The notes beneath the pieces were generated by a model. It was not told the origin of the DNA. It did no database searches and worked only from the letters and a program-made list of their open reading frames with translations. From Vairimorpha necatrix (lineage: Eukaryota): a stretch of DNA of 64,000 nucleotides. The DNA lies in assembly GCA_036630325.1 (NCBI GenBank), contig CP142733.1, positions 744,001-808,000 of the forward strand, written 5' to 3'. Below are positions 19,448-63,630 of this stretch, in pieces (position 1 is the stretch's first letter; each line of letters starts with the position of its first letter). The translations under genes and the position numbers were made by a program.

Positions 19448-19621
19448 TTAAAATTCTTTTCAGTAAAACTGAAAATTATCAAGTTTTTTGTATTATTCTA
19501 ACATATTTGTATATTTGCACATAAGTTTGTAAAATTTTCTTTTGTCATGTTAGTTCAATATATATAAAATCAAAACGACTGATAGGTAAACTGCCTCAGA
19601 ATTATTTTTTTCTATATAAAA

Positions 19622-19670
19622 TGTTATATATCCTTATTATTTTTACCCCTCATTATGGAAAATAAACACA
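19622..19670 (+). repeat. 5' LTR (49 bp) containing TATATA, CCCC motif, ATG and AATAAA
   Basis: TGTTATATATCCTTATTATTTTTACCCCTCATTATGGAAAATAAACACA. Confidence 0.9.
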
Positions 19671-22600: not shown

Positions 22601-22729
22601 TTTTTAGGATATGGTGTTATCAAGGAAGTTTGCGGAGGTGACTCATACTTAGTTAGTTTGGAAAATGGTAGGATCGTAAAAAATCGGCATTATGATTTAA
22701 AAGGTCTGCTTGGGATTAATGAGTTCTAG
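19655..22729 (+). CDS. Polyprotein: short Gag with CCHC knuckle, RT, RNase H, integrase; no protease motif seen
   Basis: CYNCGKLGHSVRFC, IDLKEGFY/MGFKNSP/YMDD, TDAS/EKEMYAV/TDHKAL/VADALSR, HENLGH..CEVC, ALDL/TDNGKEF/NGRVER. Confidence 0.93.
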   Translation: MENKHMGAIPENGSTKEDRGQEARILLKEVKRIVYELFLEKIDECGFKLEIFRRGSILLRNFIVERISQESSWKEIEEKLELLAIQEEKEQVRKKEFEELSLALWAKFEEKNKLSREENKKNMRCYNCGKLGHSVRFCRGMRRDSEDRRNKSSFNYVGKCKVQLDLEGKCDDDSNSDKCDYYNVDGGKRKKKNLGDIQDYSKRDNNKRVLLRRDVRGIAYLEEIISRVGGREDEDISFCKVEKCIIKTQEGKKVVKKGQAIAQALLKKTEDYINSLERRKIIRRSTSDWRNPIRAIEKPNGDIRLVSNLIALNDIVEKDPYELTRIRDVIRSTQGSEFFTVIDLKEGFYSIEIEEKDRFKTAFEFNKKVYEWNSMVMGFKNSPQILQRIMNGIFEKFIGKGIEIYMDDIVIHSKTREGHDKLLKEAVDILEENSMKINLAKVQLCKREVMLLGVSVNGKEILPSEIKQNEALEFPKPECVSDVRKFLGLAGWFRNHIDNYAKRTLALTDSLKGRGSNWKWTEEMEKEYISLREVIRDLKGLAIVNYNKEFLLRTDASNVGMGAVLMQEDDQGNWVPVQWASKKFTPTETRYGISEKEMYAVFWGIKKFEYELRGRRFRVETDHKALIEIRNKPAFNNNRINRWIEKIQEFDFSIEYREPSTMVVADALSRVHENEKTLMNKERSIKQAQGKWDKHVKVVDGKEIWVFDSGREAEIPKKELREGLIVNAHENLGHRSLGSVYYAMKFEFYWPGMKKDIEDVLKKCEVCQIYNRKKSGGCDFVSSRFYLEKVALDLIEFRDLGKYVLVVIDYYTRIVWGKVIEDKRGSSVVGFLKQLCGSGMKPVEIITDNGKEFSNEYMRNWCSEGNVLHRKVSVESHRSNGRVERVIGTIREGILKDDAVDFEAKVNRCIWRYNNSYHEGLRCTPFEASRDETGHVMIENGPEGFYSRRFVARKREKFYKGQRVRVAKKENLSGCSKYEKGRFLGYGVIKEVCGGDSYLVSLENGRIVKNRHYDLKGLLGINEF

Positions 22730-29205: not shown

Positions 29206-29855
29206 GGTTATATTTTTAGCTAACTATATTTATCTATCAAAACGTTTTATAATGGACTATTTTTAAAAGTATACTAGATATATGAATCATGAAAATGCAA
29301 TTTCAAAAAAAAGATCTATATCAATTATTTATATTATCTTTTATAAATCTTATAATACATTTATTTACATCTGAAACATATTATCAAAAATTAAAATTTT
29401 AAAGTATTTATAAAATTTATAAAATAATCGTGATTTTATATTTTAAGAAAAAATGATTGTAAATTTGTTACAGTTAGACCATTTAAAATTTTTGAAATAT
29501 GATATTGTACACTACAACTTTATGTTTGTTTTATTCACGCCCCTGTCAAAAATCCCAGTTCATTAATTAACGTCAAAGATCTCAATTAGTTACGTTTGGA
29601 TGGATATTTTCATTCTTATTATACGTTTTCAAGACAACAATCTTTCTAGCATCTTTTAATTATATTTTTTATAAAGAATTTAATTTTTTTTAAAATTTTG
29701 CAGATTAAAAATAATCTTTTTTATATTAATTTTATCTCATACACAACAAAATTTCAAAAGTTCTAATAGAATAATTTTAAAATGGAAAATAACATGATCT
29801 TTATTAAAAACGTTTTTCATCTTTTTCTATTTAATGAAAAAAATTTAATAACCCC

Positions 29856-30644
29856 ATGTGGATTGTCTTTTTTCATGTTGTTGCTAAATTATGTACTGAC
29901 AATATATTTGTAGTTCCAAACTATAATAATGCAAATGTTTACATTTCATTAAAACATAGTGATTTACCAGGAACTTATATCATTACTGAGTTAATAAATG
30001 AAGATACTGTTAGTGGATGCGTAAAAACTTATAATCATAGATCGAAATCAGTGGGGCAAACTATACCACATTATTTCAAATCAATTACTTCAGAAGAAAC
30101 AAATAGTTTAGAACAATTTTTAAATGGTCATAAAATTTGTAACACCAATGATAATGAGAAAGTTGAATCGTTCTTAAAAAGTGACTATGTAGCAGTAGCA
30201 AAAATTCCATTATTTAAAAATAAAATATATTTTATTGATGTGATGAAATCAAAGAATCTATCAACCGTCGATATTTACTCTACAAGTAAAAAACTCACCT
30301 TTAATGAATTAAGTAATTTTTATACCGTAGAATTGTCCGCTCGATATTATTTTATGTCAGATAATGTATCTTCACCTATTCCTTCGTTATATAAAAATGG
30401 ATTACTAAGATTTTCTAATTGCCCAAATATAAACAATGATTTAAAAAACAACAATGAAAGGTTAAGATATCAGAAATCCGGAGAATGCACAATACATGAA
30501 AATCAACGGATCAATAACAATTACCTTAAAAGTCAAGAAATTTCAGAAACTAATATTCAAAAATGCAAAAGAATTATATCGGATCGAACATTACTATTCG
30601 CAACGAATTTTTCGAAAAAAATAAAAAAAACATTCAATTTCTAA
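29856..30644 (+). CDS. Family-A putative secreted protein
   Basis: CCCC-ATG, hydrophobic N-terminus, IFVVPNYNNANVYISLKHSDLPGTYIITEL, VAVAKI, VMKSKN. Confidence 0.85.
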   Translation: MWIVFFHVVAKLCTDNIFVVPNYNNANVYISLKHSDLPGTYIITELINEDTVSGCVKTYNHRSKSVGQTIPHYFKSITSEETNSLEQFLNGHKICNTNDNEKVESFLKSDYVAVAKIPLFKNKIYFIDVMKSKNLSTVDIYSTSKKLTFNELSNFYTVELSARYYFMSDNVSSPIPSLYKNGLLRFSNCPNINNDLKNNNERLRYQKSGECTIHENQRINNNYLKSQEISETNIQKCKRIISDRTLLFATNFSKKIKKTFNF

Positions 30645-33225
30645 TTGAGAATATTATCGCAACTTTAATTATTACAATAAAGTTTTTAATTAAATTTATT
30701 TTTTTAATGATGATAAATTATAAAAGTTTTTTTGTATCAATGATGGATTGAACAACATTTTCTATCCATAATCGTTAGAGCTAGCTCTCTACAGTTGTTC
30801 GTTACTATGGAAAATATTTATGTTCTTACGTACAAATGTTTTAATGGTCTACTTTTGCTTTTGTCTACCAAGTCTCTACATATATCTGACCAACTATTTA
30901 CTTAATTAACACCCTGATCGTATCTTCTTTATTAGTTGAAACAGACTCTGCAGTCTTTTTCAAATAGATTTGGTGCATACTTTCTCAATTTCTAGTTTTC
31001 AGTTTCTTGTTGTACTTTTTTGCTATTTGGTCTCCGTTTCATCCCATTTAAATACATATGTCTACTTTTGAACATAATTTATGTATTTGGTTCAGGCCAT
31101 AATCTACAGATTAGCTTTTAGCTTTTCATTTTCGACTTAAATAAGTCCAATCTGATAGTGCCCAACTGCCAAATTGATGTTTTTCTTGGAATAATGTTTT
31201 TTATTTAGATCTTAATTGAAGAGGCATAAGTTTTAAGACATTAAATCATAAATGTTCCATTAGTAAATATATCTAATTATATAAAATTACACACATCTAT
31301 AACATATCTCGCTTTAATAGTTATTTTATATTTTTATAATCTATAAGCTTTTAAATAACAAATGATTAAGATTTGGAAAATTAAATTATTAGAATATTTG
31401 TCATTTAGACCTGTATTTATATTATCCTTTTCCATATAACTAATTTATCATAAATAATGAAATAAAAAAAAAGTTTTCTGATATATATATATGGAATGAT
31501 TATCTGATTAAAAAAAAGAAAGGTGCGCAAGTTTTAGATTTAATATGCAAGCTGAAAAAACTAAATAAAATATTTTCTATTGTATGTAAAATTATTTAGT
31601 GTATCATAGTAATCTAATGTATGCAAGTAGATAAATAATAAATTTTTTTTTACGTTCTCTAAATCTTTTTAATTTTAATGTTGAAATATAATAAAACTTC
31701 AAAAAAGAGGTGGAAAATATATTTTTATATTTGTAATGCCATGAAATGTATGTTAAATTTGTTTAGAATATTCCTGAAGCATAAGGTTTCGAATGTTACA
31801 GAAATACACGAAAAGTTTGAAGTTGAAACTGTATTAAATTTTATTGAATTCTAACTTGGATTTAAGAATTGTGTGTATAAATTATAAAGCACGAAATAAT
31901 TATAGAGTAAATTATGGATCATTTTCAAAATACGTCCATCTAAATAGAATATGTGAAGAGTTGAAGTTTCGCAACTCTTAAGAACAAGATATTTAACAAA
32001 TACATCGCAAGTTAACGCACATCCTAGCAAGTTGCTATTATAACCGTCTAAAAGTAAACTGTTAGTTGTTTAACACATAAATTGTTTTGTAATATCAATA
32101 TGTTGCAAAGCTCTTAATCATAGAATGGTTTCATACTAGGCTGTAGATGATAATGCCAAATATTGAGATTAACGAAACAAAGTTTAAAATAAAAAATTTA
32201 TATATGTAGAGAGTAGAATGTATTTGAAGTGTTTATTTTTAAGAAAATTTATCTATTCTATAGTATTATAAACCTCTTAGAATAAAATTTAAATAATCAT
32301 CAAATTATTGAAAATTTTATGATCTATAGAGTTAAAGTTATATTGATTTTTAAATATTTATACTATAAAAAACACAAATGCAATATTGAATATAATTATC
32401 TCGTCAATTATTAATGATGTATCATACTTAAACTATTACTTTTCAAATTATGAAATTTTTAGTATTCATACGTGACTTTCTTTAATGTATATAAATATTG
32501 CTAGTTTATAACTTTTTGCATTTCATATAATTATAATATAATGAGAGAATAGTATTTTGTAGACTTACCTATTAGTTTACTTATTTAAGACGGTTTTATA
32601 TATTATGATAGACTTTTTTCAACATACTAAATTTTATAATTTATATTATGTAAATTTTTTTTGTAATGTTATATATCAAAATACACATTCTTAAAATTAC
32701 ATCTAATTTTTGAAATAATTGACTATTAAAAATAATGATATTTTTTAGTCTGTTTCTTTTCATAAAGAATTTTCTCCTAGATTTTACATTACATTGTGTG
32801 TCAAACGTTTTAATTTGTTAACTTATGTCAAAACTCTCACTTCGAGGAAATTTATGTCACAATAAATCATTATTGATTTTCATGACTAATCTATTTTAGA
32901 CTAATGATAAAAAACATTTTGTTACTTTTTTATCTCGTAAGAATTATTTGTAATGGGGTTGAATTTATTATGATTAGTGATTATATATAAAATTTGTAAT
33001 TTTTATTTTGAAAGTTATTATTTTTGGTTTAAATCTTTAATCATATAATTTTTTTTTATTGTATCTAATTGATGATCAAATATATTAAAAAGTTTTAATT
33101 AAATTTATTTAATAAAATGACATAAGATTTTTTTTATAGTTTCTTTAAAGTTAAAAATAACACTAGTTTTAGAAGAAAAAATCTAAATTTTTTAGCTATT
33201 TAAAGAAAAAAAATTAAATAGCCCC

Positions 33226-34137
33226 ATGTTATTTTTCAATTTTCTTATTGTTGAAATATTTAGCACGCACAATATATTTGTAGTACCGGATAATGATAAT
33301 GCTAATGTTTATATAACATTAAAACAGAAAGATTTGCCTGGAAGTTATATAATTCGCGAACTAAATGAAGAAAATTGTGTAAACGAATCCGTAAAAACCA
33401 ATAACCAAAGATTAAATACAGAAGATAAAACCAAACTACATTATTTCAATCCAATAACATTAGAAGAAAGAAGAGTCCTAGAACATATTTTGAATTGTTA
33501 TAAAACGCTAAACTTTAAAGATAGAAAAAAAGTTGAAATGTTCCTAAAAGGAGATGTCTTAGCGGTAGCAAAAATTCAAACTTATATAAATTATTCTATT
33601 GGTGTGATGAAATCAAAAAATTTTGTTACTGTTGACAAATATTTGAACAGTAAAAAATTTAAATTAGACAAATTTCCTAAAATCTACTCATTAGAATTTT
33701 ATGTTTCTTATGATTCCAAAGAAAATCAAATGGCACATTTTATTCCTTGTTTTTATAAAAATGCACTGTTAAAAAATCAACAATCAGAATTGCAAAATAG
33801 GGTTCACGGAAGAAGTGAAGAATATCTAAATGAAAGATCATATGTTAAAAATTTAAAAAATACAACGATTGATACAATAATTTCAGAAATAGACAATAGT
33901 TTTAAATATCAAACGCCCGAGGAATACCATAAAAATAGACATGAAGTTAATTCTAATACACGAGAAACCCATGAGGAAGTTAGAACAGCACCCATAAACA
34001 GAAGTAGATTGAATGGCTTATTTTCATCAGTTCAAAATCTCTTAAATATAGGAAATTCTAGCAATCAAAATGATACTAACAGAAGAAATAGAAGAAATTC
34101 ATTAAATTCACCTTTAAATCGTGGTTCTAGGTTCTGA
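33226..34137 (+). CDS. Family-A putative secreted protein (closest paralog 44540..45499)
   Basis: CCCC-ATG, MLFFNFLIVEIFS, family motifs, C-terminal NRSRLNGLFSSVQNL and RRNRR. Confidence 0.85.
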   Translation: MLFFNFLIVEIFSTHNIFVVPDNDNANVYITLKQKDLPGSYIIRELNEENCVNESVKTNNQRLNTEDKTKLHYFNPITLEERRVLEHILNCYKTLNFKDRKKVEMFLKGDVLAVAKIQTYINYSIGVMKSKNFVTVDKYLNSKKFKLDKFPKIYSLEFYVSYDSKENQMAHFIPCFYKNALLKNQQSELQNRVHGRSEEYLNERSYVKNLKNTTIDTIISEIDNSFKYQTPEEYHKNRHEVNSNTRETHEEVRTAPINRSRLNGLFSSVQNLLNIGNSSNQNDTNRRNRRNSLNSPLNRGSRF

Positions 34138-35081
34138 TAACAAAAAAGCTTTATTTATAAATTGAATATTTATATTGAAATAATTATCAAACAAAAATTA
34201 TTAATAAGTAAATGTCTCTATAATCGGCATTTTAATCGAGATTTGAAAGTGAAAAATTGACTTAAGTAGACTTAATATAAACAGCCTTGGTTATTTCGAA
34301 TTAGTATGCAATTATTAAATAAAGCTATTTTTTAACAAATTTAGTGCATTAAAGGGCATATGTTTTTGTCTTTGCAAAAGCATTAAACAATTTATCATAT
34401 AAATTTTATATTTCTGAATATATAGCGACATGTTGTCATTTGTAATAATTTTGTATATTCCTGTGTTTTCCATATCAACTAAATAATAATAAAAGTTTTA
34501 AGCTATAGATATTTTTTTTTAAAGTTATATTAAAAGAAAACAAGTTAATATTTTGTTGCAAAAAAAGTGGATTTAAAATTCATAAATGAGCATTTTGAAA
34601 AAAAAAAACAAATTGTTAAAAGCATGTATTAATTTTGGTATCATTTATAAAAACACACTGTTATCTGAAGAAGATATCGCAAGCTGCTGATGTCGTAGCA
34701 TTTACTTTGAACCAATTAAGTTCTTAACTGGCGAGTGGATCAGACGTGTTAATTTTTTTTAATCCTGCTGAACGTAGGTTACAAACATTCCTGTGTGTTG
34801 TTCTAATCCTAAGAGATATTTTTCTCCTACAAGCAAGGCCTTTATGGTATTCTGACGGGGTCTAAATTTATTAGCTGTTGGAGTTTTTAATTGCTGGTGG
34901 CTTTTTTTTAATAACAATAAAAGTTTTTTAGTTTTTTTTAGCAAGGCCTTTATGATATTTTGGCGTTTATCACAAGTTATTAGCTGTTAGGGTTTTTATT
35001 TCTGTAAAAGGTTTTTTTAATATCAATTAAAGTTTTTAGTTTTTTACTAAGATTTTATTATTATCAAAATATAAAAAACAA

Positions 35082-35265
35082 GAGGTTAAGATGTCAGAAA
35101 TCCGAAGAATTTACAATAGAAGAAAAATCAACAAATAAATGGCAATAAGCTTGAAACTCAGAATTACATAAAATATTCTTTGGAAATTCAAGAAAATTCT
35201 ATCAGATCAAATATTACTAATCGCAACAAATATTTCGGTAAGAATGAAAAAACATTTATTTCTAA
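35082..35265 (+). pseudogene. 5'-truncated fragment of the 29856..30644 gene at the start of the second duplication unit
   Basis: AGGTTAAGATGTCAGAAATCCG...ACATTTATTTCTAATTGA aligns with 30459-30648, and the similarity continues into the 3' flank. Confidence 0.7.
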
Positions 35266-35323
35266 TTGAAATATTGTAGCAACTTTTAATTATTACAATA
35301 TAGTCATTTTTAAATTTTTTTTC

Positions 35324-35475
35324 GGTTAAATTGCGATGTTACCCCCCCCCCCCACCCCTAAAAAAATAAAAAAAAAAGGGGAAAAAATAAAAAAAAGGGG
35401 AAAAATAAAAAAAGGGGAAAAAATAAAAAAAGGGGAAAAAATAAAAAAAGGGGAAAAAATAAAAAAAAGGGGAAA
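35324..35475. repeat. Left Merlin TIR with C-run and about six 17-19-bp A-rich/GGGG subterminal repeats
   Basis: Reverse complement of 41558-41688, repeat unit AAAAAATAAAAAAAGGGG. Confidence 0.9.
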
Positions 35476-35606
35476 CAAACTTTATTCAAGTAATTCAAAA
35501 TCAAATTCGGGCGCTAAATCATAATTTAAAAATAATATATTATCAATCTCAAAGAAGCATAACATTCTTTCAAGTAGTGATTCTCTATAAATTAACTTAA
35601 AACGAG

Positions 35607-36238
35607 CTATATAAAGTTTTCGAATGAGATTAGTAAAGAATTATGGCTTGTTCCTTCTTTGCGCAATTCCCTTTTAATTACAGACCACATTCCCTCAATT
35701 GTTTGGGTGTGGGCGCCTGTTATTGGATTTACAAAATTTTGGCTATGATTTACAGTTAAATGTAAATAGTTATAATTCGGACATAGTTCCGAAAACCCTT
35801 CATAACCCCGCCAACAATCAGTAATAATTGTAGACCCAGGTGCGATTTTTCGTTTTATTAAATCGACAAGAGTAGCTCTTGATCGATTTTCAACAATTTC
35901 GAAAATAAAAGAATTGCTGTCTCCTCGTACAACTCCACCAACGGCCCAAACTTGGGATCGAAGGATTCTACCGTTATGGTTTTTACTTTTAACAAGCAAT
36001 GTCTCGTCTATTTCAACTACGCAATTTAAACCTCCTATGGTTTTGTTTTGAAGGTAGTTGAAATAGGATAAGAATACAGCGTTATTAAAACGCGTAAACC
36101 AGCGAGATACGGTACTACTATCTATATCCAATTCGATAGTAGCCGAAACATTGCTTACACCTTTAACCCATTCACACAGCAAAATTAAAAGATCTTCGAT
36201 ATCTAATCTAGAACTTTTAAAAATGCTTTCTTTGTAAA
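35607..36238 (-). pseudogene. Merlin transposase, catalytic (DDE) part downstream of the Helitron insertion
   Basis: IGG...VVEIDET, QVWAVGGV, GSTIITDCWRGY, HLTVNHSQNFVNPITGAHTQTIEGMWS are IS1595/ISXO2-type motifs. There is a probable further frameshift near the C-terminus. Confidence 0.9.
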
Positions 36239-36327
36239 CTAGCGTATGCACACCCGTTCTGAGAACGGGTTGTTTGTGTTTGCATGGGTACATGTTTTAA
36301 TTTTATCACATTATATTTATTCTTTAA

Positions 36328-36439
36328 AAAAATGGCATAGTTTTTGTACGCTCACGGCGCATTTTATCATCTTTTATCTCATCCTTATTGGAAGAAAAAT
36401 GGCATAGTGCTTGTACGCTCACGGCGCATTTCTTCATCT
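36328..36439. repeat. Two ~45-bp direct repeats (period 67 bp) in the Helitron 3' non-coding region
   Basis: AAAAATGGCATAGT..TTGTACGCTCACGGCGCATTT at 36328 and 36395. Confidence 0.85.
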
Positions 36440-36447
36440 CTTGGCTC

Positions 36448-39400
36448 TTATGGGCCAATTAGTTCACGTAGAACTACATTTTTGACATTGCCCCTGTTTC
36501 CCCCCAACTTGACTCTCAAGTTTTCACTCTTCTTCACTCTTGACAAAGCTACGTATAATTGACCATGAGAAAATACATCCTCAGGCAAATACACTCCCAC
36601 TTTGTCAAAAGACTGTCCCTGTGCTTTATGTATTGTCATCGCATATGACAATACCACAGGAAACTGTCTTCTTTTAAGTACAAACGGAAGAAGAGTGTCA
36701 CTTGGCATCATGTCTATCTTTGGTATAACAGCAAGGGTGCCCCTTCCCCTTCCTGTTATTATTTCACCTAAGATGTAATTATCTTTAAGACCTTTTATCT
36801 TCAATCTGGTCCCATTTAATAATCCATTCTTAGGATCAATATTGCGTAACAACATCACTATTGCCCCTATCTTCAATACTAACTTATGTGGAGGAAGTCC
36901 TGATGGCTGTTGCATGTTCAAGAACTCAAGAGGAAATCTCAGTTGTTCTTCGATATCCTCTGATTCTATAGCATCAGAACTCACATATACCCTCGAAGGT
37001 CCTTTGAGAAGGTTTAACACTTTGGCATTCAATTCATTTGCATGTTCATTTTTGCTCGTTAAGATAATCTTATCAAACAAAGAATCATCACCTGCTTCAA
37101 TTTTGATTGTTCCAAAAATGCTATCGACTATGTCCCCTTCTTCAAGATATTCTTTGGGTATCTCCACACATCCTTTACTATCTCTAGTACGCCCCTCACC
37201 TATATCTAACAACCACTTATTAAACTCCAATTGATTATAAGATCTCATGTTCGTTTCAAGCTTTAGTACACAGACATGTACCCAAAGTCTTGAACTAATT
37301 AATGAGTTCTCGATGATATCATTTGGAGTACCCTTCATTACAATGGTTGATGTCTGTCTAAAGTCACCACCCAACAATAAGGTCTTCCCTCCAAAGATAT
37401 CATTATTATTACAGAGTCTTTTAAGCACCTCATCTATTGCGTCCAATGCATGTTTTGACATCATCGAAACTTCATCTATCAGCAATAATGAGGCCTTTAT
37501 TATTCTCTCTGCTTCTGGAGTATTTTGCTTTAGTCTAGATACGCTGGTCTCTGTCAAAGGAACAGGAAGTTTCATACAACTATGCATTGTTCTTCCATCC
37601 TTTAATAAATCTGCAGCAATACCTGTGGTTGCCATCTGTATTGAAGATTTTTTACTCTTACTTAGATACTCGATCAGGACATTATATAAATATGTCTTTC
37701 CTGATCCAGCTGGTCCATCTAAAAAGAATAAATTGCCTCTTTTATCTATATTATCTGTAATTATATCAAAGGCATTTCTCTGGTTTTCATTCAAAGAGGA
37801 TATCATCTGATCTAGATCTTGTTCATTATCAAAGACGGCTCTTTCATTCTTGATATAGTTAATCGGCTCATCTAAACCCAGAGCATTTAAGCTCCATCCA
37901 TGAGCATTAACTATATCTTTTAATCTACTTAATATTTCGTCTCTACTATTCTGATCTAGATCTTCAGACATATCTCCAAGATACTTCTCAAAGAGTTCTT
38001 TGGTATTTTTAGGCTTATTGAAAGCACAAATATATCCAAACAATGCTCTTATTATTGATGGGGACTCGGTTGATACAGCCTCATCCAAAGCCCTTTCCCA
38101 TTCTTTATCATCTTGAAGAAGTCCTCTTTCTTCCACCGCCTCTGCGAAAGAACTGTAAACTACACCATTTACAGTTCTCAAATCCTCATATGACTTAACC
38201 CCCTTTACATTGATCAATAGAACTCTGAGGCTAAATCTTTCCTTCTCTATTGGAGATACAGAATAAAGTCTAGTAATTATCTTACTATACTTATTCTTTC
38301 TCCTAATCCATTCTCCCCTTTTATATGTATAGTGATAGGGTATCTCACTATACGAAAATCGATGTGCTCCTTCATCAACTTCATTCAATTTGAAGTAGGC
38401 TAAAAGAGGAGTCTGTCTAAGATCGGACAATCTAACGGCTTCCTCTTCTCTGCCTTCTTCGAAAGTGATCAATTGTTCTTGTGGAAGATGCACAGGAAGT
38501 CTATGGATCTTATGAGATCTTCCATGCATCTTGTATTCCATTAATCTCCAGGTAGCCTCTGGTGCTGAGACATATCTGGAATTCACAAAATGATCAATTT
38601 CATTGTTGTCAGTTATTCTCATTTCAGCACAATCAAATCCCTTGTAAATATACTTAAAAATATACTTTACTGACTTGATAGAAGTACAAACTTCTACATT
38701 GATATGACAATTGTATTTTTCAAGTAGATAAGCATTATAAGGGACCACGTTAGCATTAGTAACAATGTTGCCCCTTACATTGTACTCGGCCCCTCTAGAT
38801 CGTCTGTACTCAGGATATCCGTCTTTATCGATCCTTGTTTCAGTATTATGTTCCTTAGGATATTCCTTAGTGCAGAGACCATTTTCCATACATGGACTTG
38901 TCAAGTTACTTAGTCCACATGGTCCATGAATCATATGTTTTGTTACACAGGTGTGTAACACTTCATTTTCCATGGGCGATGGTATTTCTGCACTTACAAA
39001 CTTATCTATCATATTTTCATCCCGAATCTTGTCCTTTAACATTATCAATATATGTGCATGAGGAAGTCCACGTTTTTGAAACTCAATAGAATAGACATGA
39101 GCCACGACTTCCCCAAACACTCTTCCTGCCAAAATCTCTTCCATCATACTTTTCAACTTTAAGTTAAAGACCTTTGCTACCAAATCTGGTCTATCAACTG
39201 CTGTCTGTCCCTCAAATAGATTCTCATTAATCTCCTTCCATTTGGGATTGCAAGTCATAGTTATAAAAAGATCGGGCTTGCCGAAATTTCTTACAATTGA
39301 CATTGCATCATGGTATCTCTCTCTCATATTTCTTGGAGATCCTTGAAAACTTGATGGTAAGATCACGGGCTTGGCAGAACTTTCTGACCCATTATTTACA

Positions 39401-40752
39401 TAATCTACCAAACCTTTGTAAAGATCTACCCTCAACTTCTTTTGATTTAATTTTATGAAGTTTAAATTATTTGCTTCTACTTGTAGATATGAATCTACAA
39501 TCCATTGTTGAAACAACTTTCCTCCATAAAGCAAAGGGTTGAATCTATCTTTTCTTATGGATATCTGTGCTACTTTGTATTGTAACAAAGATATCTTCTG
39601 TGCCTCTCCTAGATAAGACTCCAGCCTCAAATTTGCATTCCATCCAGCTTCGCCATGTGGATAGAACAAAGTATATGTCATTGGATCTAAATGTGGACTT
39701 AAAATATCCAAGTGTAAATTATCAGAATTAAAACCCTTGCTATATACTTTAATGTCCCTCTCAAATGGGGGTTCTCCATTTGGATCAGTGAAAATCATTG
39801 CGATTTCACTTGTAGAGGGAGCATTATATCTTCTCTGATCTCTATCTAAATTCTTATTAAAGACCATAGAAATGTCTTTAACTTCTTTCCCCACTTCCTT
39901 TTGCTCCTTTATTATTTCAGACATATTTTTATACGCATTGGAATATGGATTGGCTGATCTTATAAATCCATCTAATTTGCTCATGATATATATATCACAA
40001 TTTCTATTAGATGGATTCGTCATTCTTTGTGAGTTTGCCATATCACTATCCACTACATATAATTGGGCATATTTCTTTGGTGTATTAGATTCCATATTAT
40101 TTACATTATAAGTGTTATGATACACTTGTCCATGTATTTTGAATACATATGGACCATTAGACACAGTTTCTATTTGAGCACCAAGAGAAGCAAAAGAAAG
40201 AGCAGCATTGTAAGATCTAATATTTTCTTTGAAGTTCTTTCCATCTTTATCTTTTCCAATGAATAAATTCTTAATCTCATTTGGGAAGTTTCTAGTTCTT
40301 TGTAATTTGACTTTCCCAAAATGACAGCAGCTTTTGTATAATCCATTACTGCTTGCTTCTCCAGCAAAATGTAATGCACCACAAAAGGCACATTCTTCTT
40401 TCAGATCTCCACAATAATGTTCGGCGTGGTTTCTGCTAGTAATTCTGCAAGCTAGATCTAGTTTTTCTGTCAAAGTTTGCATTGTTGTGTTATCTGTTAA
40501 TCTAGCTGTTTTTTCTGTGCTGTTTGTTGGATTAAGAATTGTTTTGTTTTCGCCAGAGAAACTGAATATGAAATTCCTTTTTTTTGTTTCTCTGACATTT
40601 GTTTTTTTATTTTTTGTGTTATGTACAGAGGCATTGGCCCCATAGAAAATAACATTGTCATTTTCAGTATTACTACATATCTCCTGAGAGATAGTGATAG
40701 TTGCTTTTGGTTGTTCACTAAAATCGCAATTTGTTTGATTTTTCGTAAACAT
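36448..40752 (-). CDS. Helitron RepHel transposase (Zn finger, HUH Rep, PIF1-like SF1 helicase)
   Basis: CAFCGALHF..CC, PDLFITMTCNPKW, EFQKRGLPHAH, KYIFKYIYKG, DGPAGSGKT, IDEVSM, GDFRQ, QFPVVLSYAMTIHKAQGQS, HGQLYVALSRV; CCCCC-ATT-ATG start. Confidence 0.96.
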   Translation of the reverse strand: MFTKNQTNCDFSEQPKATITISQEICSNTENDNVIFYGANASVHNTKNKKTNVRETKKRNFIFSFSGENKTILNPTNSTEKTARLTDNTTMQTLTEKLDLACRITSRNHAEHYCGDLKEECAFCGALHFAGEASSNGLYKSCCHFGKVKLQRTRNFPNEIKNLFIGKDKDGKNFKENIRSYNAALSFASLGAQIETVSNGPYVFKIHGQVYHNTYNVNNMESNTPKKYAQLYVVDSDMANSQRMTNPSNRNCDIYIMSKLDGFIRSANPYSNAYKNMSEIIKEQKEVGKEVKDISMVFNKNLDRDQRRYNAPSTSEIAMIFTDPNGEPPFERDIKVYSKGFNSDNLHLDILSPHLDPMTYTLFYPHGEAGWNANLRLESYLGEAQKISLLQYKVAQISIRKDRFNPLLYGGKLFQQWIVDSYLQVEANNLNFIKLNQKKLRVDLYKGLVDYVNNGSESSAKPVILPSSFQGSPRNMRERYHDAMSIVRNFGKPDLFITMTCNPKWKEINENLFEGQTAVDRPDLVAKVFNLKLKSMMEEILAGRVFGEVVAHVYSIEFQKRGLPHAHILIMLKDKIRDENMIDKFVSAEIPSPMENEVLHTCVTKHMIHGPCGLSNLTSPCMENGLCTKEYPKEHNTETRIDKDGYPEYRRSRGAEYNVRGNIVTNANVVPYNAYLLEKYNCHINVEVCTSIKSVKYIFKYIYKGFDCAEMRITDNNEIDHFVNSRYVSAPEATWRLMEYKMHGRSHKIHRLPVHLPQEQLITFEEGREEEAVRLSDLRQTPLLAYFKLNEVDEGAHRFSYSEIPYHYTYKRGEWIRRKNKYSKIITRLYSVSPIEKERFSLRVLLINVKGVKSYEDLRTVNGVVYSSFAEAVEERGLLQDDKEWERALDEAVSTESPSIIRALFGYICAFNKPKNTKELFEKYLGDMSEDLDQNSRDEILSRLKDIVNAHGWSLNALGLDEPINYIKNERAVFDNEQDLDQMISSLNENQRNAFDIITDNIDKRGNLFFLDGPAGSGKTYLYNVLIEYLSKSKKSSIQMATTGIAADLLKDGRTMHSCMKLPVPLTETSVSRLKQNTPEAERIIKASLLLIDEVSMMSKHALDAIDEVLKRLCNNNDIFGGKTLLLGGDFRQTSTIVMKGTPNDIIENSLISSRLWVHVCVLKLETNMRSYNQLEFNKWLLDIGEGRTRDSKGCVEIPKEYLEEGDIVDSIFGTIKIEAGDDSLFDKIILTSKNEHANELNAKVLNLLKGPSRVYVSSDAIESEDIEEQLRFPLEFLNMQQPSGLPPHKLVLKIGAIVMLLRNIDPKNGLLNGTRLKIKGLKDNYILGEIITGRGRGTLAVIPKIDMMPSDTLLPFVLKRRQFPVVLSYAMTIHKAQGQSFDKVGVYLPEDVFSHGQLYVALSRVKKSENLRVKLGGNRGNVKNVVLRELIGP

Positions 40753-41369
40753 AATGGGGGTAAAGAAAAAAAAAAGTATTTATAGTTTTTAAAATTAAAA
40801 TTCCATTTTGGGAAAGAAGAAAACAAAAATGAGAAAATGATTTTTTATAAATAGCTTTGATATTAGTCTAAATATTAATTAATTGAGTTTGTTATTCAGT
40901 TGATAAATTTCTAATGTTTGTAAATCAACTTTATTATGTTTGTTTCTTGTTTTGATTTTTGAATTTCCATTTCTGGTAGGAAGAATTAAAAAGGAGCAAA
41001 TGTGATTTTTAGAAGTTAAGTATTATTATTGAATCAACATAGCAGTGGTAAAGTTAATTCAGTAACAAATTTTAATCCAATTGAGTTAATTTCACACATT
41101 AGTAACAAATTTTTTCTACATTTTGTTTCATATTGTTTTTGTTTTCTTTTTCTAAAAGGAAGAAATTATAAAGGAGAAAATCATATTTCTAATAATTTCA
41201 AAAATGATTTATATACAAAATATAAATAATGTATCTGGTCTAAAATTGTCTATAAAATACAGTGAAAGCATTTAATTTTGTTTTAAAACAAAAATTTTAC
41301 CATTTTAAATTTTCTCTTTTTTTGAGTTTTAGGGGTAAAAAATTAAATAAAATTCTTTTATATATATGA

Positions 41370-41550
41370 TGTTACCTTTGTTTGAGCATTTTCTCCCATT
41401 TCGTCGTAAGTAACAACGATATTTGTATAATTATTTCTAATTTTGGTCATGGGTGTCATGCACTTATTGCACATTGGCACCTTTAATATATTTTTTTCAA
41501 GAAGAAATAAAAATAATTCCTCTTTTTTATATATTAATTTTCTAAAATTT
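41370..41550 (-). pseudogene. Merlin transposase N-terminal zinc-ribbon part, upstream of the Helitron
   Basis: Reads ..ELFLFLLEKNILKVPMCNKCMTPM.., then after a 1-nt shift near 41430, YKYRCYLRRNGRKCSNKGN-I, which joins in frame to YKESIFKSSRL when 36239-41369 is removed. Confidence 0.8.
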
Positions 41551-41557
41551 TTTATTT

Positions 41558-41688
41558 TCCCTCTTTTTTTTATTTTTTCCCCCTTTTTTTATTTTTCCCC
41601 TTTTTTTTATTTTTTCCCTTTTTTTTATTTTTTCCCCTTTTTTTTTATTTTTTTAGGGGTGGGGGGGGGGTAACATCGCAATTTAACC
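41558..41688. repeat. Right Merlin TIR with about five subterminal repeats
   Basis: ...GGGGTGGGGGGGGGGTAACATCGCAATTTAACC then TSD. Confidence 0.9.
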
Positions 41689-42046
41689 TTTTTTTCAAAT
41701 ATGGTGAATTTAAAGAGATTTTTTTTGTTCTATAGATATGTTGATTCAGATTTTCTATGCATATGAGTTAATTTAAGCATTCTACGGTCGTTAGTTACTA
41801 TGGAAATTTCTAAATTCGTACGCACCAAAGTTTTAATAGTCTGATTTTGCTTTTGTCTCCCAAGCCTCCACTTATATCTGACCAACTATTTACTCCCCAT
41901 AAACCTTATCGTATGGGCTTTTAATAAAAGAAAATACTCTTAAATTTTTTAATTTAAATAAATTTGGCGTATACTCTCGCAATTAAATTGTTTCAGTTTT
42001 TTTTATTGTGTATTTTGTTTTTTTTCGGTCACCGTTTGTTTGCATT

Positions 42047-42789
42047 TGTTGAGAATATAGATTTAATAAATTTGACCCTTAACTTACAATTTGTTTTTAA
42101 CATGGTGGAGAATAAAATTATTGAACCCAAACAAAAACAAAAGAAGGGATCGTAAGAACCGTCGAAGCATGAGACGTAAAAAAATGCAGTCTAGGTTAGA
42201 AAGGGGATGGTTGGTTGTACAGAAGAGAAGGTGATGGCTTGCATCAGTCGAGGGACCCGGATAGGTGAAGACGTAAAGTAGCTATAAAGAGCTATGGAGA
42301 AACAGTATTGACTGTAATAAGATCTGGCATAAGAGTTGTCGAGATTGAGTGTAGGGGTAATCCCACTATTCACATTAAAGCTATCGTGGTAAGATAGTTG
42401 AACCAATAGTGTTCAAAAATCCAGAGAGATTAAAAAGAGAAGAAAATCAAAAAGAAACTGTGTTATAGTCGAAGAATGAGATAGACGGAAAAAATTCGAT
42501 TTCATTGTTGGGAAGACATGTGTAAAGAATAATTACATGCCCATAGACTACATGTATTAAAACAGGGGAAAAAAGTTCCTCGAAGACCAATACTAGAGGT
42601 GATTGTAAGACGCGGTAGAGTAAGCGCAGCCCATGGTCAGTTAACATAAAAATGCACTTTTATTTTGAGAGCCCAGTAGGCGTAGGAAGTATTAAAGATA
42701 ATTTCATCGCCCAATTCTGAATTTAGCGCGGGGATGTTGAGAATATAGATTTAATAAATTTAACCCTTAACTTACAATTGTCTTTAACA
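42047..42789 (+). mobile_element. Non-autonomous TRIM-like LTR element, copy A (743 bp)
   Basis: LTRs 42047-42102 and 42735-42789 (TGTTGAG..TTAACA), PBS TGGTGGAG at 42103, PPT GCGGGGA. Flanks do not match (GCATT/AATAG). Confidence 0.85.
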
Positions 42790-42844
42790 AATAGAATGTA
42801 AGTTAATTGCTTATTTTTTTAAAATCTCATCTATTCAACAGTAT

Positions 42845-43587
42845 TGTTGAGAATATCTATTTAATAAATTTAACCCTTAACTTACAATTATCATTAACAT
42901 GGTGGAGAATAAAATTATTGAACCCAAACAAAAAATAAAAGAAGAGGTCGTAAGTTACGTCATCGCATGAGACGTAAAAAAATACAGTTTAGGTTAGAAT
43001 GGTGTTGATTGGTTGTCTAACAGAAGAAAGGGGATGGCTTGCATCAGTCGAGGGACCCGGATAGGTGAAGACGTAGAGTAGTTATGAAGGGCTATGGAGA
43101 AACAGTATTGACTGGATTAAGATCTGGCATGAGAGATGCACAGATTTGTGTAGTGGTAATCTCACCATTCACATTAAAGCCATCGTGGCAAGATAACCGA
43201 ACAACAAGTGGTAAAAAATCCAGTGAGATTACAAAGAGAAGAAAATAAAAAAAAAACTGTGTTGTAGTTGAAGAATGAGTAAGATGGTTAAATCCGAATT
43301 CATTGTTGGGAAGACATGTGTATAAAAAAATCCCATGCCCATTGACTTTATGTATTATAACTTGGAAAGAAAGTACAGCAAAGACCAGTACTAGAAGGGA
43401 TAGTAAGACGCGGTAGAGTAAAGCGCAGCCCATGGCCAGTTAACATAGAAATGCTCTTTTATTTTGAGAGTCAAGTAGTAGGCGTAGGAAGTAGTAAAGA
43501 TGATTACATCACCCAGTACTAAATTTAGCGCGGGGATGTTGAAATATTTATTAATAAATTTTGCCCTTAACTTCCATTTTTTTAACA
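42845..43587 (+). mobile_element. Non-autonomous TRIM-like LTR element, copy B (743 bp)
   Basis: LTRs 42845-42899 and 43537-43587, PBS TGGTGGAG at 42900, PPT GCGGGGA, TSD AGTAT (42840-42844, 43588-43592), interior homologous to copy A. Confidence 0.88.
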
Positions 43588-44539
43588 AGTATTATAAAAC
43601 ACTTATCATAAAATTCCAATAATCACTAAAAGCATGACAATTCTATGATCTATAGAGTTAAAGTTATATTGCTTGCAGAATATTATTACTATAAAAACAC
43701 CAATGCAATATTAAGTATATTTATCTCGTCAATTATCAATAATATATACACTGATCTATTACTTTTTATTGACAAAGTAGTTTTAGTAGCGTAAAGTTTT
43801 AAATGTATATAAACGATCGCTAGTTTTTGTATCTTGCATTTCATATTGAAAGAAATATTGAGGTTTTTTTATTTCGTAGAGTTACCTAAAACATAAATTG
43901 TTAAGGAAGTATTCGGTTTTTTTATATGTATATTATAATTCTCAGATTTAAATTAAAATTCTTTTCTTTTGTATTGAAATATAATCTACAGATTCTGAAA
44001 ATTATATCTCATTTTTAAAATAATTGACTTTAAAAAATATTGATAAAATTATGTTTCACTTTCTTATCCAAAGAAATATTTTTATCTTGAGATTTTTCAT
44101 TGCATTATGTGTCAAACGTTTTAATTAGTTGGCTTCTGTCAAAACTTTCACTTAAAGACTTTTATGTCAGAAATAAATCATTTATGGTTTTTATGATTAA
44201 TACATTTGAGAGTAATGATGGGAATTTTTCGTACGCTTTTTCTTTTTCTTAGAAACATTTGTATATAAGTTGAATATTTTGTGATTTATATAAAATTTGT
44301 AGTATTTAAATTTGTTTTTATATAAAAAGTAGTTATTTTTTCGTATATTTATTTAATAATATAATTTTTTATTGTATCTATCTAATTAATGATGAAATAA
44401 ATTAAATGTCAAAATTGAATTTATAATATGATTAACATAATATTTTTCTTTTATAGTTTTTTTAAAATGAAAGATTACAACAATCATAAAAAAATGTTTT
44501 GCATTTTTTAGCTATTTAAAAAAATTATACAATAGCCCC

Positions 44540-45499
44540 ATGTTATTTTTTATTTTTCTTATTGTTGCAATATTTTGTACGCACAAAATTTTTGTTGTAC
44601 CGGATAATGATAATGCGTATGTTTACATATCTTTAAAACTGAAAGATTTGCCCGGGACTTATATAATTCGCGAACTATTGGGTGAAAATTGTGTAAAGGA
44701 TTTCATAACCCCCAATAATCAAACAATAAAATCAGAAGATAAAACTAAACTACATTATTTCAAGCAAATAACACCAAAAGAATATAACCTTTTAAAACAT
44801 TTTTTAGACTGTTATAAAATCATTAACATTAAAGATAGAAAAAACGTTGAATTTTTTATGAAAGAGGTTGTCTTAGCAGTAGCAAAAATTCCAACAAAAA
44901 AAAATTATTTTATGTTTGTGATGAAATCAAAAAATTATGTTACTGTCGACACATATTCAAATAGTAAAAAGTTTACATTAGACAAATTTCCTAGATTCTA
45001 TTCTATAAAATTATTTACTTCCTATGATTTCAAAGAGGATAAGAGGTCTCATTTTATTCCTTCGTTAAACAAAAATGCATTGTTAAAATTTTCTGAATAT
45101 CAAACTATAAATGAAGAGAGAGAAAAAATTAATAAAAATCTCATATTTAAATTGCAAAAAAGAGATAATGGAGGAAGCGAAGAATATCTAAATACAAGAG
45201 CAAATGCTAAATTCCTTAAGTATTCAACGATTGATACAAAAATATCAGAAGTAGACGATAGTTTTGAATATCGAACGCCCGAACAATACCATAAAATTGA
45301 TAATGAAGCTGATTTTAATGCACAGGAAACCCATGAGAAAGTACAAACACCATCCATGAACAGAAGTAGATTGAATGGCTTATTTTCATCAGTTCAAAAT
45401 TTGTTTAAATTAAAGGATTCTAGCAATCATAATGGTGCCAGCAGAAGAAATAGAAGATGGTTGTCAAATTCCGATTTAAACCAAAGTTCTAGGCGGTGA
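44540..45499 (+). CDS. Family-A putative secreted protein
   Basis: CCCC-ATG, MLFFIFLIVAIFC, IFVVPDNDNAYVYISLKLKDLPGTYIIREL, colinear with 33226..34137. Confidence 0.85.
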   Translation: MLFFIFLIVAIFCTHKIFVVPDNDNAYVYISLKLKDLPGTYIIRELLGENCVKDFITPNNQTIKSEDKTKLHYFKQITPKEYNLLKHFLDCYKIINIKDRKNVEFFMKEVVLAVAKIPTKKNYFMFVMKSKNYVTVDTYSNSKKFTLDKFPRFYSIKLFTSYDFKEDKRSHFIPSLNKNALLKFSEYQTINEEREKINKNLIFKLQKRDNGGSEEYLNTRANAKFLKYSTIDTKISEVDDSFEYRTPEQYHKIDNEADFNAQETHEKVQTPSMNRSRLNGLFSSVQNLFKLKDSSNHNGASRRNRRWLSNSDLNQSSRR

Positions 45500-45966
45500 T
45501 AACAAAAGGCTTTATTTATTAGTTGAATATTTAGATTTCATAATTATATATCAATTCAATGAGCTCTATAATCGGCATTTTAATCAATATTTAGAATAAA
45601 AACGCTACTATTATACTAGACTAAATGTGATACAATCTTGGTTATTTTGATTTAGTACGCAATTAATAAAATAAAGTATTTTTAACGATTCGATGTAACA
45701 TTATTTAGCATATTTTTTTTTATTTTACAATAAAATGATACCCTCTAGTGAGAGAGCCAAAACGAAAATATTGCACCTTTAAGGAGCAAATAAATGAATG
45801 TTTTAAAAATTGAGTTATTGATTTTAGAATTCATCATTGTGGTTCCCTTGCTGTTTACATTGATATGTGATTCTTATTTTAATTTCTCTTTCATCGTACC
45901 CTTTTATAAATATTTTTTATCTATAAAAATATAATTTCTAGAAAATTCAGATTTGCTAAATATTGA

Positions 45967-52965: not shown

Positions 52966-53781
52966 TTATTCAAGTTTTGTATTATTAAAACTGTTAATCA
53001 ACTGTTCAATACTTGACACATTTCTCAAATTTATAATATTGTTTTTCACTATAAAATTAAGCGTACTATTTTGATTCACAATTTTTTTGTCTTTAACATT
53101 CATTAAGCTTAAGGCTTGTTCATTTTTGTATTCTATAACAGAATCAATCGTACTCATACAATTTTCATATGTTATTCGATCAAATAAATTTTTTAACTCT
53201 TGTGGACATCTCTCTCTAAATTTCATATCAATACCATTATATATTAAAGACCAGATATAAATATTATTGGCATCATTCACGTCACTAAATTTTAGCAAGC
53301 TGATATTATAAATAAGTTTATAACTGTGCCAAGCCAATGACATAATAAATCTTTTTATTGGTAGCTTATGTTTTCTTATTTTATTTTTTGTGATAAAAGA
53401 ATTTATATAATGTAGATAGTGTTTTGGTTTTTCGAAATCAATTTTTAATGGACTATGCTCATCGAAAAATTGTAAAATTTTAAAAATATTCTTGTTATTT
53501 AGAAAAATTTTGTACATGAGTTTAGCTGCTGAATTAATTAATTTTTTCTCTATCGGATATAGATTGTTGATAGCATATTGTTTGTTATATGACACAGTGT
53601 TATCATCACAAAATAAGTCTTGCTTTGAAGGACGATATTCTTCCTCGACTTCACGTATATTTTCAATTTCTGATAAACTATTTATTTTAAAGTCAAGAAA
53701 ATGAATATAAGATTCATTATATTGGTAGTTTTGTATTGAATTTTTTATAACATTATAAAAAGTAGCAAACATAATCATCAT
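52966..53781 (-). CDS. Family-B protein, paralog of 15573..16364
   Basis: CCCCTA-ATG, KIRKHKLPIKRFIMSLAWHSY, ANNIYIWSLIYNGID, CP, YENCMSTI. Confidence 0.8.
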   Translation of the reverse strand: MMIMFATFYNVIKNSIQNYQYNESYIHFLDFKINSLSEIENIREVEEEYRPSKQDLFCDDNTVSYNKQYAINNLYPIEKKLINSAAKLMYKIFLNNKNIFKILQFFDEHSPLKIDFEKPKHYLHYINSFITKNKIRKHKLPIKRFIMSLAWHSYKLIYNISLLKFSDVNDANNIYIWSLIYNGIDMKFRERCPQELKNLFDRITYENCMSTIDSVIEYKNEQALSLMNVKDKKIVNQNSTLNFIVKNNIINLRNVSSIEQLINSFNNTKLE

Positions 53782-56598
53782 TAGGGGTTAAACCTCAGTT
53801 TTTCTATTATTTTAAACAAATAGTTAATAAAAAAAACATTTAGGTGGCGGAATGTCAGGTTTTAATCTTTTAATTATTCGTTTTTACAACAGAAAACGTA
53901 AAGTAAAAATCTGAAAAAAAATTAATTTATAAATAGTTTAATGATAAGTAGAAATTACATTAAAAAAAATTATATTAGTATAAACAGATCTACAATCGAA
54001 AGTATTCTGAATACAATAATGACAATGTATGTTTTTAATTTGCTTTAAAAATTAATTTAACAGAGATCATAAACTCCAATCAATTTGTATTATTTATTAA
54101 AAATTTTCATACTACATAATCTGCAAAAAAAATAGTTTAACTGTTTTAGATTGTGGGCTTTGTTGTAAATCCTGACATTTTTGCTAGAATGGTAAATTAA
54201 ATATAAATTTCAACTAAAATGATATTTTTTATTTGTTTCATTCACTATTTAATAAAAAATCGTCTTTAGTAAATAAATAAGCAAAAATGCGCCCAATAAG
54301 TTTAAAAGAGATATTTCTGGCAATATACAGAAAAAAATATTTCGAATTATGTAAAAATATATTTGACCTTTTTAGACCCTGAAAAACTTATGATGATGGC
54401 TCAAAAAGTAAAATTTTGCATAAATAGAATAAAATCTCAATATGGTTGAATACTATGTATACGCCATAGTAAATATATAATAACTAATCTAAATAATTTC
54501 TTACTTAGAAAGTATTTTATATTCAAAAGCAACGTAAAACGCTGTCATTCTTTTTAGTTTGTATCATCATCTCAGCTGTATTTTGATATCGGAATTCTAT
54601 TAGTGTCATTAGAAATATAATGAATTTACGAATAAGCTACTTAGTCTTGTAAATAAAACACATCGTTTATACCAAATAAGAGTTAATATAAATTATAAAC
54701 AAAAAACTTATAATATTGTATTGTTCACATTAACACAAACTGCACAATAGGGAAAAAATTAGCTTAAATAATAAATTTTATGTCTAAATGTCGCGTATGT
54801 ATTTTAGGATAGCAGTCGAACTGTTTTTTCTTATATTTTTTATCTTATTACGTTCCAATCCATCAATAACAAATTATCAAAAAATTAGAAGAGAAACTAA
54901 ATGAAGATTTAAAGAGTATGTACACGCAATACTAGATCCAAAATAAGACTTTAAAACATACCACAAAAAGACAATGAATTATAAGTGTTTTTAAGAATTT
55001 ATTTATGAAGCTTTAATGGAACTTTTGAGCTTCGTGAAGTGCAAAATTTCGTCTTATAAGAGTATAAACTCATAAAATTATATTATACTTTCATGATCAC
55101 ATCATTATAATATTTTTAAATAAATAAAGAAAATGTAATTTATTAATCGTATGTCAATAAGCTTTTAACTTGCGATTATCCATTATCCCATGAGTTATAA
55201 GGAATCATAGATATCGTTTATTAATTGTCGTTAACGGATTTATAAAAACATTAATTACCTTATTTATGTTTTGTTAAATTATATAAGCTGCTAGTCTAAG
55301 ATTGCTTAAAGGCAGCAAAAGTAAATTTTTTTTTAGTAATATAGAAAATCTATCTTAAAAATAAGTCCATGCCCCAATCTAATCATAAAATTTACAATTA
55401 AAATAAAATCTGATATTACTAAGGTTTAGTTGCGATATAATGATGTAATATGGAATGTCTATTGGATCGACATTGCATAGTATTCTAAGGTATCTTTACA
55501 TAAAAATGAGCTAAAGAAAATCGTAAGACATACAAATTTTTAAACAACAGAAAAACATTAAGAAAAAAAAAATATTTTAGTAATCAACAAAAGACAATTA
55601 AAGTCCAATGAATATGGCAATTTTGTTATATGTTCAATAAGCAAATAAATAATATTACTAAACAAATATATACACAATTTCATTTAACGGCAACATTATG
55701 AGATATAATATTAGTAATAATCGTAATATTTAATGTGTATAATTTTTTTTAGTATCTAAAATATGAGCCATAGCCATATTCAATCAAATATATTTAAATG
55801 AAATATTCTATTAATCGTATTGAATAGTTATTTTTTATAGATAAGCAAAATTTTTCATCTTTTAATTTTATAAAATCACGTTAGAATTAAATTATTAAGG
55901 TGAAAAATATACCGTAATGGTAATTGTTTGTATTTTTTAAAATGAATTTATAATTTCTATAAAATAATATTATAATAATGTTTAAATTTATTTTACAAAT
56001 TATAAGACAAGATATTAATATTATATCATAAATTTGAGATGATTTTTCAAATTTAATTTGTTTAAAATCTATGATTTTGACATTTTCTAATTAACTTTTG
56101 AACTTGTTATATAGTTTATTTTCTACAATATATTTTTTAACGCATTACTCTTTATTGCGTATTACATCACACGTCAAAAATATCAGTAATTCTGCTTTCA
56201 AAAATTAATCTATTTTACAATTTCTTATATAATTAATTAATATTTTTAGAATTTTCTAGTGTTCATTCTCCAATGTTATTTCCTAAAGCATATGACTATT
56301 TTTTTACCAATATATTGACGAATAAATTATAGAATTATAAATCCAATTTTGTGTGTAATTTTAACAAATTTTTTCTTTCATATATAAAATTTTTATAAAA
56401 ATACATTATGTTTTAGTTATAAAACATCAAATTCTTCTCTACTAATAAAACAAGTATTTCTTTTTGTTTAAATCAATATCATCTCATACATTAAAATGTT
56501 CAAATGAATAATTACTTAAACTTTAAGATATAATGTTTAATATGCAACAACATTTTTTCTTTTTTTTTTTCTATATAAACAAAAAACTTTTATACCCC

Positions 56599-63605: not shown

Positions 63606-63630
63606 GAGTATGTTAATATAAGTAATAACT

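Follow-up and report, generated by a model that had tools for sequence, protein, structure and literature searches.

We analysed a 64,000-nucleotide stretch of the Vairimorpha necatrix contig CP142733.1 (assembly GCA_036630325.1, positions 744,001 to 808,000 of the forward strand), hereafter called the window, in which a Helitron lies inside a Merlin transposon. All coordinates below are those of the window. The outer element and the borders of the two insertions are made up of the following features:

35316-35323, left copy of the target-site duplication, 8 bp, TTTTTTTC
35324-41688, Merlin/Helitron composite, 6,365 bp, with inverted ends starting with GG at both borders
35324-35475, plus strand, left Merlin inverted-repeat arm, with 5.8 copies of an 18-bp subterminal repeat at 35371-35475
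35324-36238, minus strand, Merlin part 1, 915 bp, the 3' portion in transposase orientation
36239-41369, minus strand, autonomous-type Helitron, 5,131 bp, inserted between A (41370) and T (36238) in minus-strand reading
41370-41688, minus strand, Merlin part 2, 319 bp, 5' portion holding the beginning of the transposase gene and the right arm
41548-41688, minus strand, right inverted-repeat arm of Merlin, carrying the 18-bp subterminal repeat in 5.7 copies at 41548-41652
41689-41696, right copy of the target-site duplication, 8 bp, TTTTTTTC, a perfect match to the left copy

The Merlin ends at 35324 and 41688 are identical over their first 28 nt and then differ in the length of a C-run (12 vs 10); over a 144-nt alignment the two arms agree at 92%. 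Within the window there are exactly two occurrences of the 20-nt terminal word, inverted relative to each other, and 100 shuffles gave none. Identical 8-mers at the spacing of the target duplication are found by chance at 6 of 57,619 window positions. An excerpt of PMC8101967 defines Merlin elements by inverted repeats of 24-462 bp starting with GG and by a target duplication of 8 or 9 bp; the outer element has GG-starting inverted repeats in this size range, an 8-bp duplication and a DDE_Tnp_IS1595 domain. An earlier sequence-only reading of the window had described intact Merlin ends with an intact 8-bp duplication and a shared orientation of the two elements. All of its coordinates hold, and both genes indeed lie on the minus strand, an arrangement that has a one-in-two chance and needs no explanation. 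In silico removal of 36239-41369 leaves a Merlin element of 1,234 bp (915 + 319).

The inner element starts and ends precisely at canonical Helitron termini and carries a single long gene:

41369-41331, minus strand, Helitron 5' terminus, 39 nt, starting with TC (41369-41368)
40752-36451, minus strand, RepHel coding sequence, 1,434 codons from the first ATG, with the stop codon at 36450-36448
36239-36270, minus strand, Helitron 3' terminus, a hairpin with a 9-bp stem, a 9-nt spacer and CTAG (36242-36239)

The 3' hairpin folds as DNA at -9.1 kcal/mol (z -3.0), a value matched by 1 of 200 shuffles, and the 3' terminus is unique within the window. The element thus defined combines TC/CTAG ends lacking inverted repeats, a 3' hairpin, an A|T target without duplication and a RepHel protein. 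It matches the definition of Helitrons given in an excerpt of PMC4778049 (TC and CTRR ends, a palindrome near the 3' end, insertion between A and T). The insertion point falls into the zinc-ribbon/linker part of the Merlin transposase gene.

The RepHel open reading frame (ORF; 36448-40779) runs unbroken over 1,443 codons from stop to stop, and residue numbers given here are counted from this stop-to-stop ORF. Its Pfam matches are Helitron_like_N (4.4e-62), PIF1 (1.4e-55) and Pif1_2B (2e-17). Read from its N-terminus, the protein has a Cys-rich motif, then a Rep domain containing an HUH motif and two tyrosines, and finally a PIF1-like SF1B helicase bearing the Walker A and B motifs. We aligned it with 14 relatives picked from the best 120 of 462 matches. 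In every invariant column of this 15-sequence alignment the window protein carries the family residue, including His-574 and His-576 (HUH), Tyr-706 and Tyr-710, Gly-1025, Lys-1028 and Thr-1029 (Walker A), and Asp-1102 and Glu-1103 (Walker B). Among the matches listed, the best full-length database relatives share 38-55% identity. The proposal that the Helitron is autonomous is thus borne out in its anatomy: with canonical ends, an intact RepHel gene and all catalytic motifs the element looks autonomous, and on these grounds it may be active. We also observed that the C-terminal 800 amino acids of RepHel (36451-38841, minus strand) find their closest named relative in a partial protein recorded under the butterfly Papilio xuthus (65% over 801 amino acids). 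This match could reflect a transfer between Lepidoptera and microsporidia, or parasite DNA in the butterfly assembly.

We compared the locus to contigs from four public sequencing runs (X1 to X4). Contigs holding parts of 35000-42000 were aligned to 34500-42500 at 90% likeness; X2 is a freshwater metagenome (0.07 of words) and X3 a bat gut metagenome (0.06 of words). The contigs listed, to which the results below refer, are the best-supported ones, with 7,393 pieces and 167 loose ends lying beyond them. In three of the four runs, which come from three different studies, one contig each joins 36237 to 41369 and skips exactly 5,131 nt, with an ambiguity of 1 nt. These empty-site contigs have the following depths and shorter sides:

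X1, depth 1406.9, shorter side 86 nt
X4, depth 85.1, shorter side 87 nt
X3, depth 3.72, shorter side 112 nt

The joint is not among the listed contigs of X2. Of the two metagenomes, X3 alone contributed an informative contig, the one with the empty-site joint, and nothing about habitat follows from it. Since the contigs skip exactly 5,131 nt, they show that Merlin copies without the interruption exist and that the borders of the Helitron are exact. The empty Merlin copies whose search had been suggested as a check are thus present, with contigs of three runs joining both Merlin halves precisely at the position of the Helitron. In addition, eight loose ends among the listed X1 contigs leave Merlin at 41688 into unlike sequence (agreement 0.59), and the Merlin family thus sits in several flanks. 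Merlin copies whose frame is open across 35981-36237 and approximately 41369-41455 are also present in the public runs.

The empty-site contigs bear on the reverse view of the locus, in which the Merlin halves would be cargo that the Helitron picked up by end bypass rather than the target of its insertion. Downstream capture is a known Helitron behavior, and for Helraiser an excerpt of PMC4778049 puts bypass of the 3' end at about 12% of events in cell culture. The cargo view is, however, already contradicted by the anatomy of the locus. On either side, the inverted ends of Merlin and the 8-bp duplication are external to the Helitron, a normal hairpin followed by CTAG sits directly at the Helitron border, empty Merlin copies exist, and beyond 36239 or 41369 there is no second sequence resembling a Helitron terminus. 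We consider it extremely unlikely that the Merlin halves arrived in this way. Capture of the DDE region by 3'-end bypass is in itself mechanistically possible, as is movement of the composite; we obtained no sign of either one at this locus.

We next turn to the transposase gene, which is distributed over the two Merlin parts as follows:

41558-41430, minus strand, N-terminal Cys-rich (zinc-ribbon-like) part of the transposase, corresponding to residues 2-44 of its relatives, in a frame that differs from that of the core
41430-35631, minus strand, central frame, corresponding to residues 45-267 and spanning the Helitron site
35610-36236, minus strand, transposase core, 209 codons, Pfam DDE_Tnp_IS1595 (5.8e-14)
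35631-35518, minus strand, C-terminal tail, corresponding to residues 268-306, in a third frame

The catalytic residues Asp-77, Asp-140 and Glu-181 (numbering of the 209-codon piece) are all kept in the window copy. Of 305 candidates, 119 are homologous to the core at E <= 0.001, and most of these have 290-320 amino acids. In an alignment with 22 of them (23 sequences in all) the two aspartates are found in every sequence and the glutamate in nearly every one. Among named Merlin proteins, the closest comes from V. necatrix; its overall identity of 65% is this low because of two gaps, and the aligned blocks themselves are nearly identical. It had been proposed that removal of the Helitron restores the transposase. 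The frame is indeed open across the junction, but the restoration is local only: when full-length relatives are compared to the excised Merlin, their residues 2-44, 45-267 and 268-306 each align in a different frame. The switches between these frames lie near 41428-41430 and near 35631, and at the position where the relatives start the window copy has no ATG.

Both frame switches fall at positions where public contigs contain an extra base relative to the window. The additional base behind 41428 is present in every covering contig (depth 1406.9 of 1406.9 in X1 and 85.1 of 85.1 in X4), and the one behind 35631 is found at depths of 5383 of 10683 in X1, 3.42 of 3.42 in X3 and 0 of 63.5 in X4. 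This points either to decay of the window copy or to two single-base errors in the assembly; in both cases other copies of the family are open there. An autonomous copy would have one uninterrupted transposase gene, and here the gene is split by the Helitron and lies in three frames. The window copy is therefore a family member and not an autonomous one, and because of the two further frame changes besides the insertion it could be moved only in trans. This Merlin copy is a dead host for the Helitron, with its ends and subterminal repeats intact, so that it can serve at most as a passive substrate for a transposase from another copy.

As a separate observation, the N-terminus of this Merlin family has a CxxC...C...C motif resembling a zinc ribbon, seen both in the window (41430-41558, minus strand) and in the relatives. 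The family's Pfam matches to Zn_ribbon_recom all stay below threshold (best 8.1e-05), and a search of the N-terminal piece 41361-41588 at E values as high as 1 returned no Pfam family.

A second, much shorter Helitron is present in the window:

57962-58472, minus strand, non-autonomous Helitron partner, 511 bp, inserted between A and T

Its 5' end (58434-58472) is 97% identical to the first 39 nt of the large Helitron. The 3' end again consists of a 9-bp stem, a 9-nt spacer (7 of 9 bases as in the large Helitron) and CTAG. Compared to the large element, two of the nine stem pairs of the hairpin are changed on both sides and no pair is broken, which is what a functional terminator hairpin predicts. 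A pairwise comparison of the two elements found no likeness beyond the termini. Judged by their sequences, the large Helitron and the 511-bp element look like an autonomous element with its non-autonomous partner. The first four bases behind the 3' end are the same for both Helitrons (n = 2). A candidate third 5' end at 16378-16397, an AT-rich word with three mismatches and lacking terminus features, was taken as a chance match.

Contigs of X1 and X4 diverge from the window at 41330-41338, just within the terminal word that is common to both Helitrons. Among the listed X4 contigs, three pass from the Helitron 5' end (41369) directly into its 3' end, and one provides the converse head-to-tail view at 36238. 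Precise TC/CTAG head-to-tail junctions have been described for Helitron circles and for tandem arrays (PMC4778049, in excerpt; PMC5876387). The X4 junctions fit circles or tandem genomic copies alike, and contigs cannot discriminate between the two. That they represent extrachromosomal circles, and that the Helitron family is now transposing in a natural microsporidian infection, is a weaker suggestion, and one we regard as likelier than mobility of the composite discussed below.

In the X1 contigs, the first 460 nt or so of the Helitron (40908-41369) have a summed depth in the thousands, and the coding interior has a summed depth of 0-64 with differences to the window. This contrast would fit many non-autonomous relatives with few or no autonomous copies, contig depth being untrustworthy in this respect. 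Estimates of copy number from depth (Helitron 47-201 vs flanks 2-9 in X4; interior vs flanks in X1) were dropped, because the summed depth of contigs does not give a copy number. Helitron segments that are uncovered in X1, X2 and X3 were likewise not counted as a finding.

These findings together favor two independent, stacked insertions, that is, a plain nested insertion of the Helitron into Merlin, to which we assign a probability of about 0.88. The sequence-only reading had already named this as the simplest history, and the canonical Helitron ends, the intact RepHel gene and the empty Merlin contigs in three of four runs agree with it. We infer that a 1.2-kb Merlin, a cut-and-paste element with an IS1595-type DDE transposase, would have inserted first and duplicated 8 bp of its target. 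Later, the 5.1-kb Helitron, moved by its own RepHel or by that of a sister copy, would have entered an A|T site inside the transposase gene without duplicating the target. By homology with Helraiser, RepHel may nick the element at its 5' TC end, and its PIF1-type helicase would unwind one strand and halt at the 3' hairpin and CTAG. The Helitron ends may then join into a circle, which would be pasted between A and T. Either family, Merlin or Helitron, may still be active today.

Several points weigh against this history. The order of events is not deducible from one locus, and a composite that had transposed here as a unit would look the same. Among the contigs listed, none bridges a border between Merlin and Helitron, and the filled site is attested by the window only. 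In X1, the Helitron interior (36636-39305) reaches a summed depth of 0-64 compared to 347-880 in the flanks, and the contigs found there differ from the window. We regard this thin cover as unexplained rather than contrary, given that summed contig depth is no copy number. Finally, the two single-base frame changes in the Merlin gene could be assembly errors, as both lie in short A/T runs.

Following from the first of these points, the composite might itself be mobile. The Helitron would then have entered Merlin elsewhere, and a Merlin transposase acting in trans would have pasted the 6,365-bp unit into the present site, generating the 8-bp duplication. The identical 28-nt ends, the 18-bp subterminal repeats kept in both arms and the perfect duplication are in line with this scenario, and the open-frame Merlin copies in the public runs make a source of transposase plausible. 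Against it, no composite junction in a different flank, and hence no second composite locus, is found among the contigs listed, and a scan of the metagenome contigs with exact words of the Helitron 3' end and of the Merlin end returned no stretch for either word. The unit would also be five times as long as a native Merlin. Cut-and-paste efficiency generally drops with length, a rule of general standing rather than one drawn from Merlin itself. Nested insertions are, moreover, far commoner than composite transposition, and we thus consider movement of the composite to this site unlikely.

Alternatively, the assembler may have misplaced a Helitron copy inside a Merlin copy, both families being repeated. 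Both are multi-copy in the public runs, the listed contigs include no independent one across the inner junctions, and X1, whose flank contigs match the window without a single difference (over 349, 364 and 191 nt), covers the Helitron interior thinly. However, the borders are exact canonical Helitron termini at an A|T site, and after removal of the Helitron Merlin is continuous to the base, as in the empty contigs. A repeat mis-join would not yield base-exact transposon ends, because the Merlin and Helitron families have no common sequence. An artefact of this kind is thus very unlikely, and plain nesting of the Helitron in Merlin remains our preferred history.

The surroundings of the locus are rich in mobile DNA. 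The window has a G+C content of 27% and is AT-rich; in the paper on the V. necatrix genome, repeats are put at 50% and G+C at 28.3%, and its main text names neither Merlin nor Helitron. An ORF at 12171-12704 (minus strand) resembles Tsr3, with identities of 88% to Vairimorpha bombi and 85% to V. ceranae, and this 18S rRNA aminocarboxypropyltransferase (gene at 12168-12704) is the sole clearly cellular gene recognized in the window. As a taxonomic anchor it places the window, together with the Merlin match from V. necatrix, among the insect-parasitic microsporidia of the Nosema/Vairimorpha clade. Many further elements crowd the window, including a near-identical Ty3/gypsy pair, another gypsy pol and families of paralogous ORFs. 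The Ty3/gypsy pair (7279-11296, minus strand, and 59597-63606, plus strand) is 99.6% identical over 4,010 bp in opposite orientation, and both copies have an unbroken gag-pol ORF of 1,266 codons and long terminal repeats of approximately 225-233 bp. Their likeness suggests a very recent retrotransposition or a recent inverted duplication. The third Ty3/gypsy pol ORF, at 19586-22729 (plus strand), is distinct and encodes reverse transcriptase, RNase H and integrase in 1,047 codons. Four paralogous ORFs at 29838-30644, 33196-34137, 44471-45499 and 56757-57563 (plus strand) have no Pfam match and share pairwise identities of 33-61%. Two of them are held by a diverged segmental duplication, 32262-34336 vs 43588-45686, which is 76-78% identical over about 2.1 kb. 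Tandem copies at 42046-42790 and 42844-43588 are 85% alike, and two ORFs of about 270 codons each (15573-16385 and 52966-53787, both on the minus strand), again with no Pfam match, have a mutual identity of 39%.

We compared both elements to known systems. The Helitron resembles Helibat1/Helraiser (PMC4778049, in excerpt; PMC5876387) in its TC/CTAG ends, in a palindrome that precedes the 3' end by about 10 nt (9 nt in the window, 11 nt in Helraiser), and in its insertion between A and T without duplication. Both have a single intron-less RepHel of roughly 1,430-1,500 amino acids with an N-terminal Cys-rich motif, HUH, two tyrosines and a PIF1-type helicase, and both come with short non-autonomous partners having common termini and with precise head-to-tail junctions. 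They differ in their host, which here is a microsporidian and not a bat, and the present Helitron is known from sequence alone. The outer element shares with the Merlin superfamily, as described in the excerpt of PMC8101967 after Feschotte (2004), the GG inverted ends, the 8-bp duplication, a transposase of about 300 amino acids with a DDE_Tnp_IS1595 domain and an element length of about 1.2 kb. In the window copy, by contrast, the Helitron and two frame changes interrupt the gene, and within the superfamily this family is distinguished by the N-terminal CxxC...C...C motif and by long arms with 18-bp subterminal repeats. The arrangement as a whole is like that of nested insertions in other repeat-rich genomes, in which a younger element sits in an older one, and the older one is recovered base for base once the younger is taken out. 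Nothing of substance sets it apart from these; the combination of a rolling-circle element within a cut-and-paste element reflects the families active in the genome.

Merlin and Helitron elements have both been catalogued in several microsporidia (Table 1 of PMC4202319; Table 2 of PMC3614468; Table 2 of PMC5012567; PMC12558613), and Merlin is described as common in Nosema and Anncaliia genomes in an excerpt of PMC4202319. The two elements are thus new members of known superfamilies in a group in which both are known, and they do not represent a new kind of mobile element. What the locus adds to microsporidian mobile DNA is a well-delimited, apparently coding-competent Helitron together with a short partner. 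Because those same catalogues, as far as the tables named above for the first three go, give the Helitrons and Merlins of microsporidia only as counts or percentages, the exact ends, the compensatory hairpin and the empty-site proof could make the present element a reference copy for annotation. If the composite does move, cut-and-paste transposition would become available to a rolling-circle element for spreading within the genome. Since exchange between microsporidia and the animals they infect has been reported for Merlin and other DNA transposons, a mobile composite might gain a route between genomes as well. Movement of the composite, or Helitron circles in infected tissue, if either is real, would bear on how rolling-circle elements spread between parasites and their hosts.

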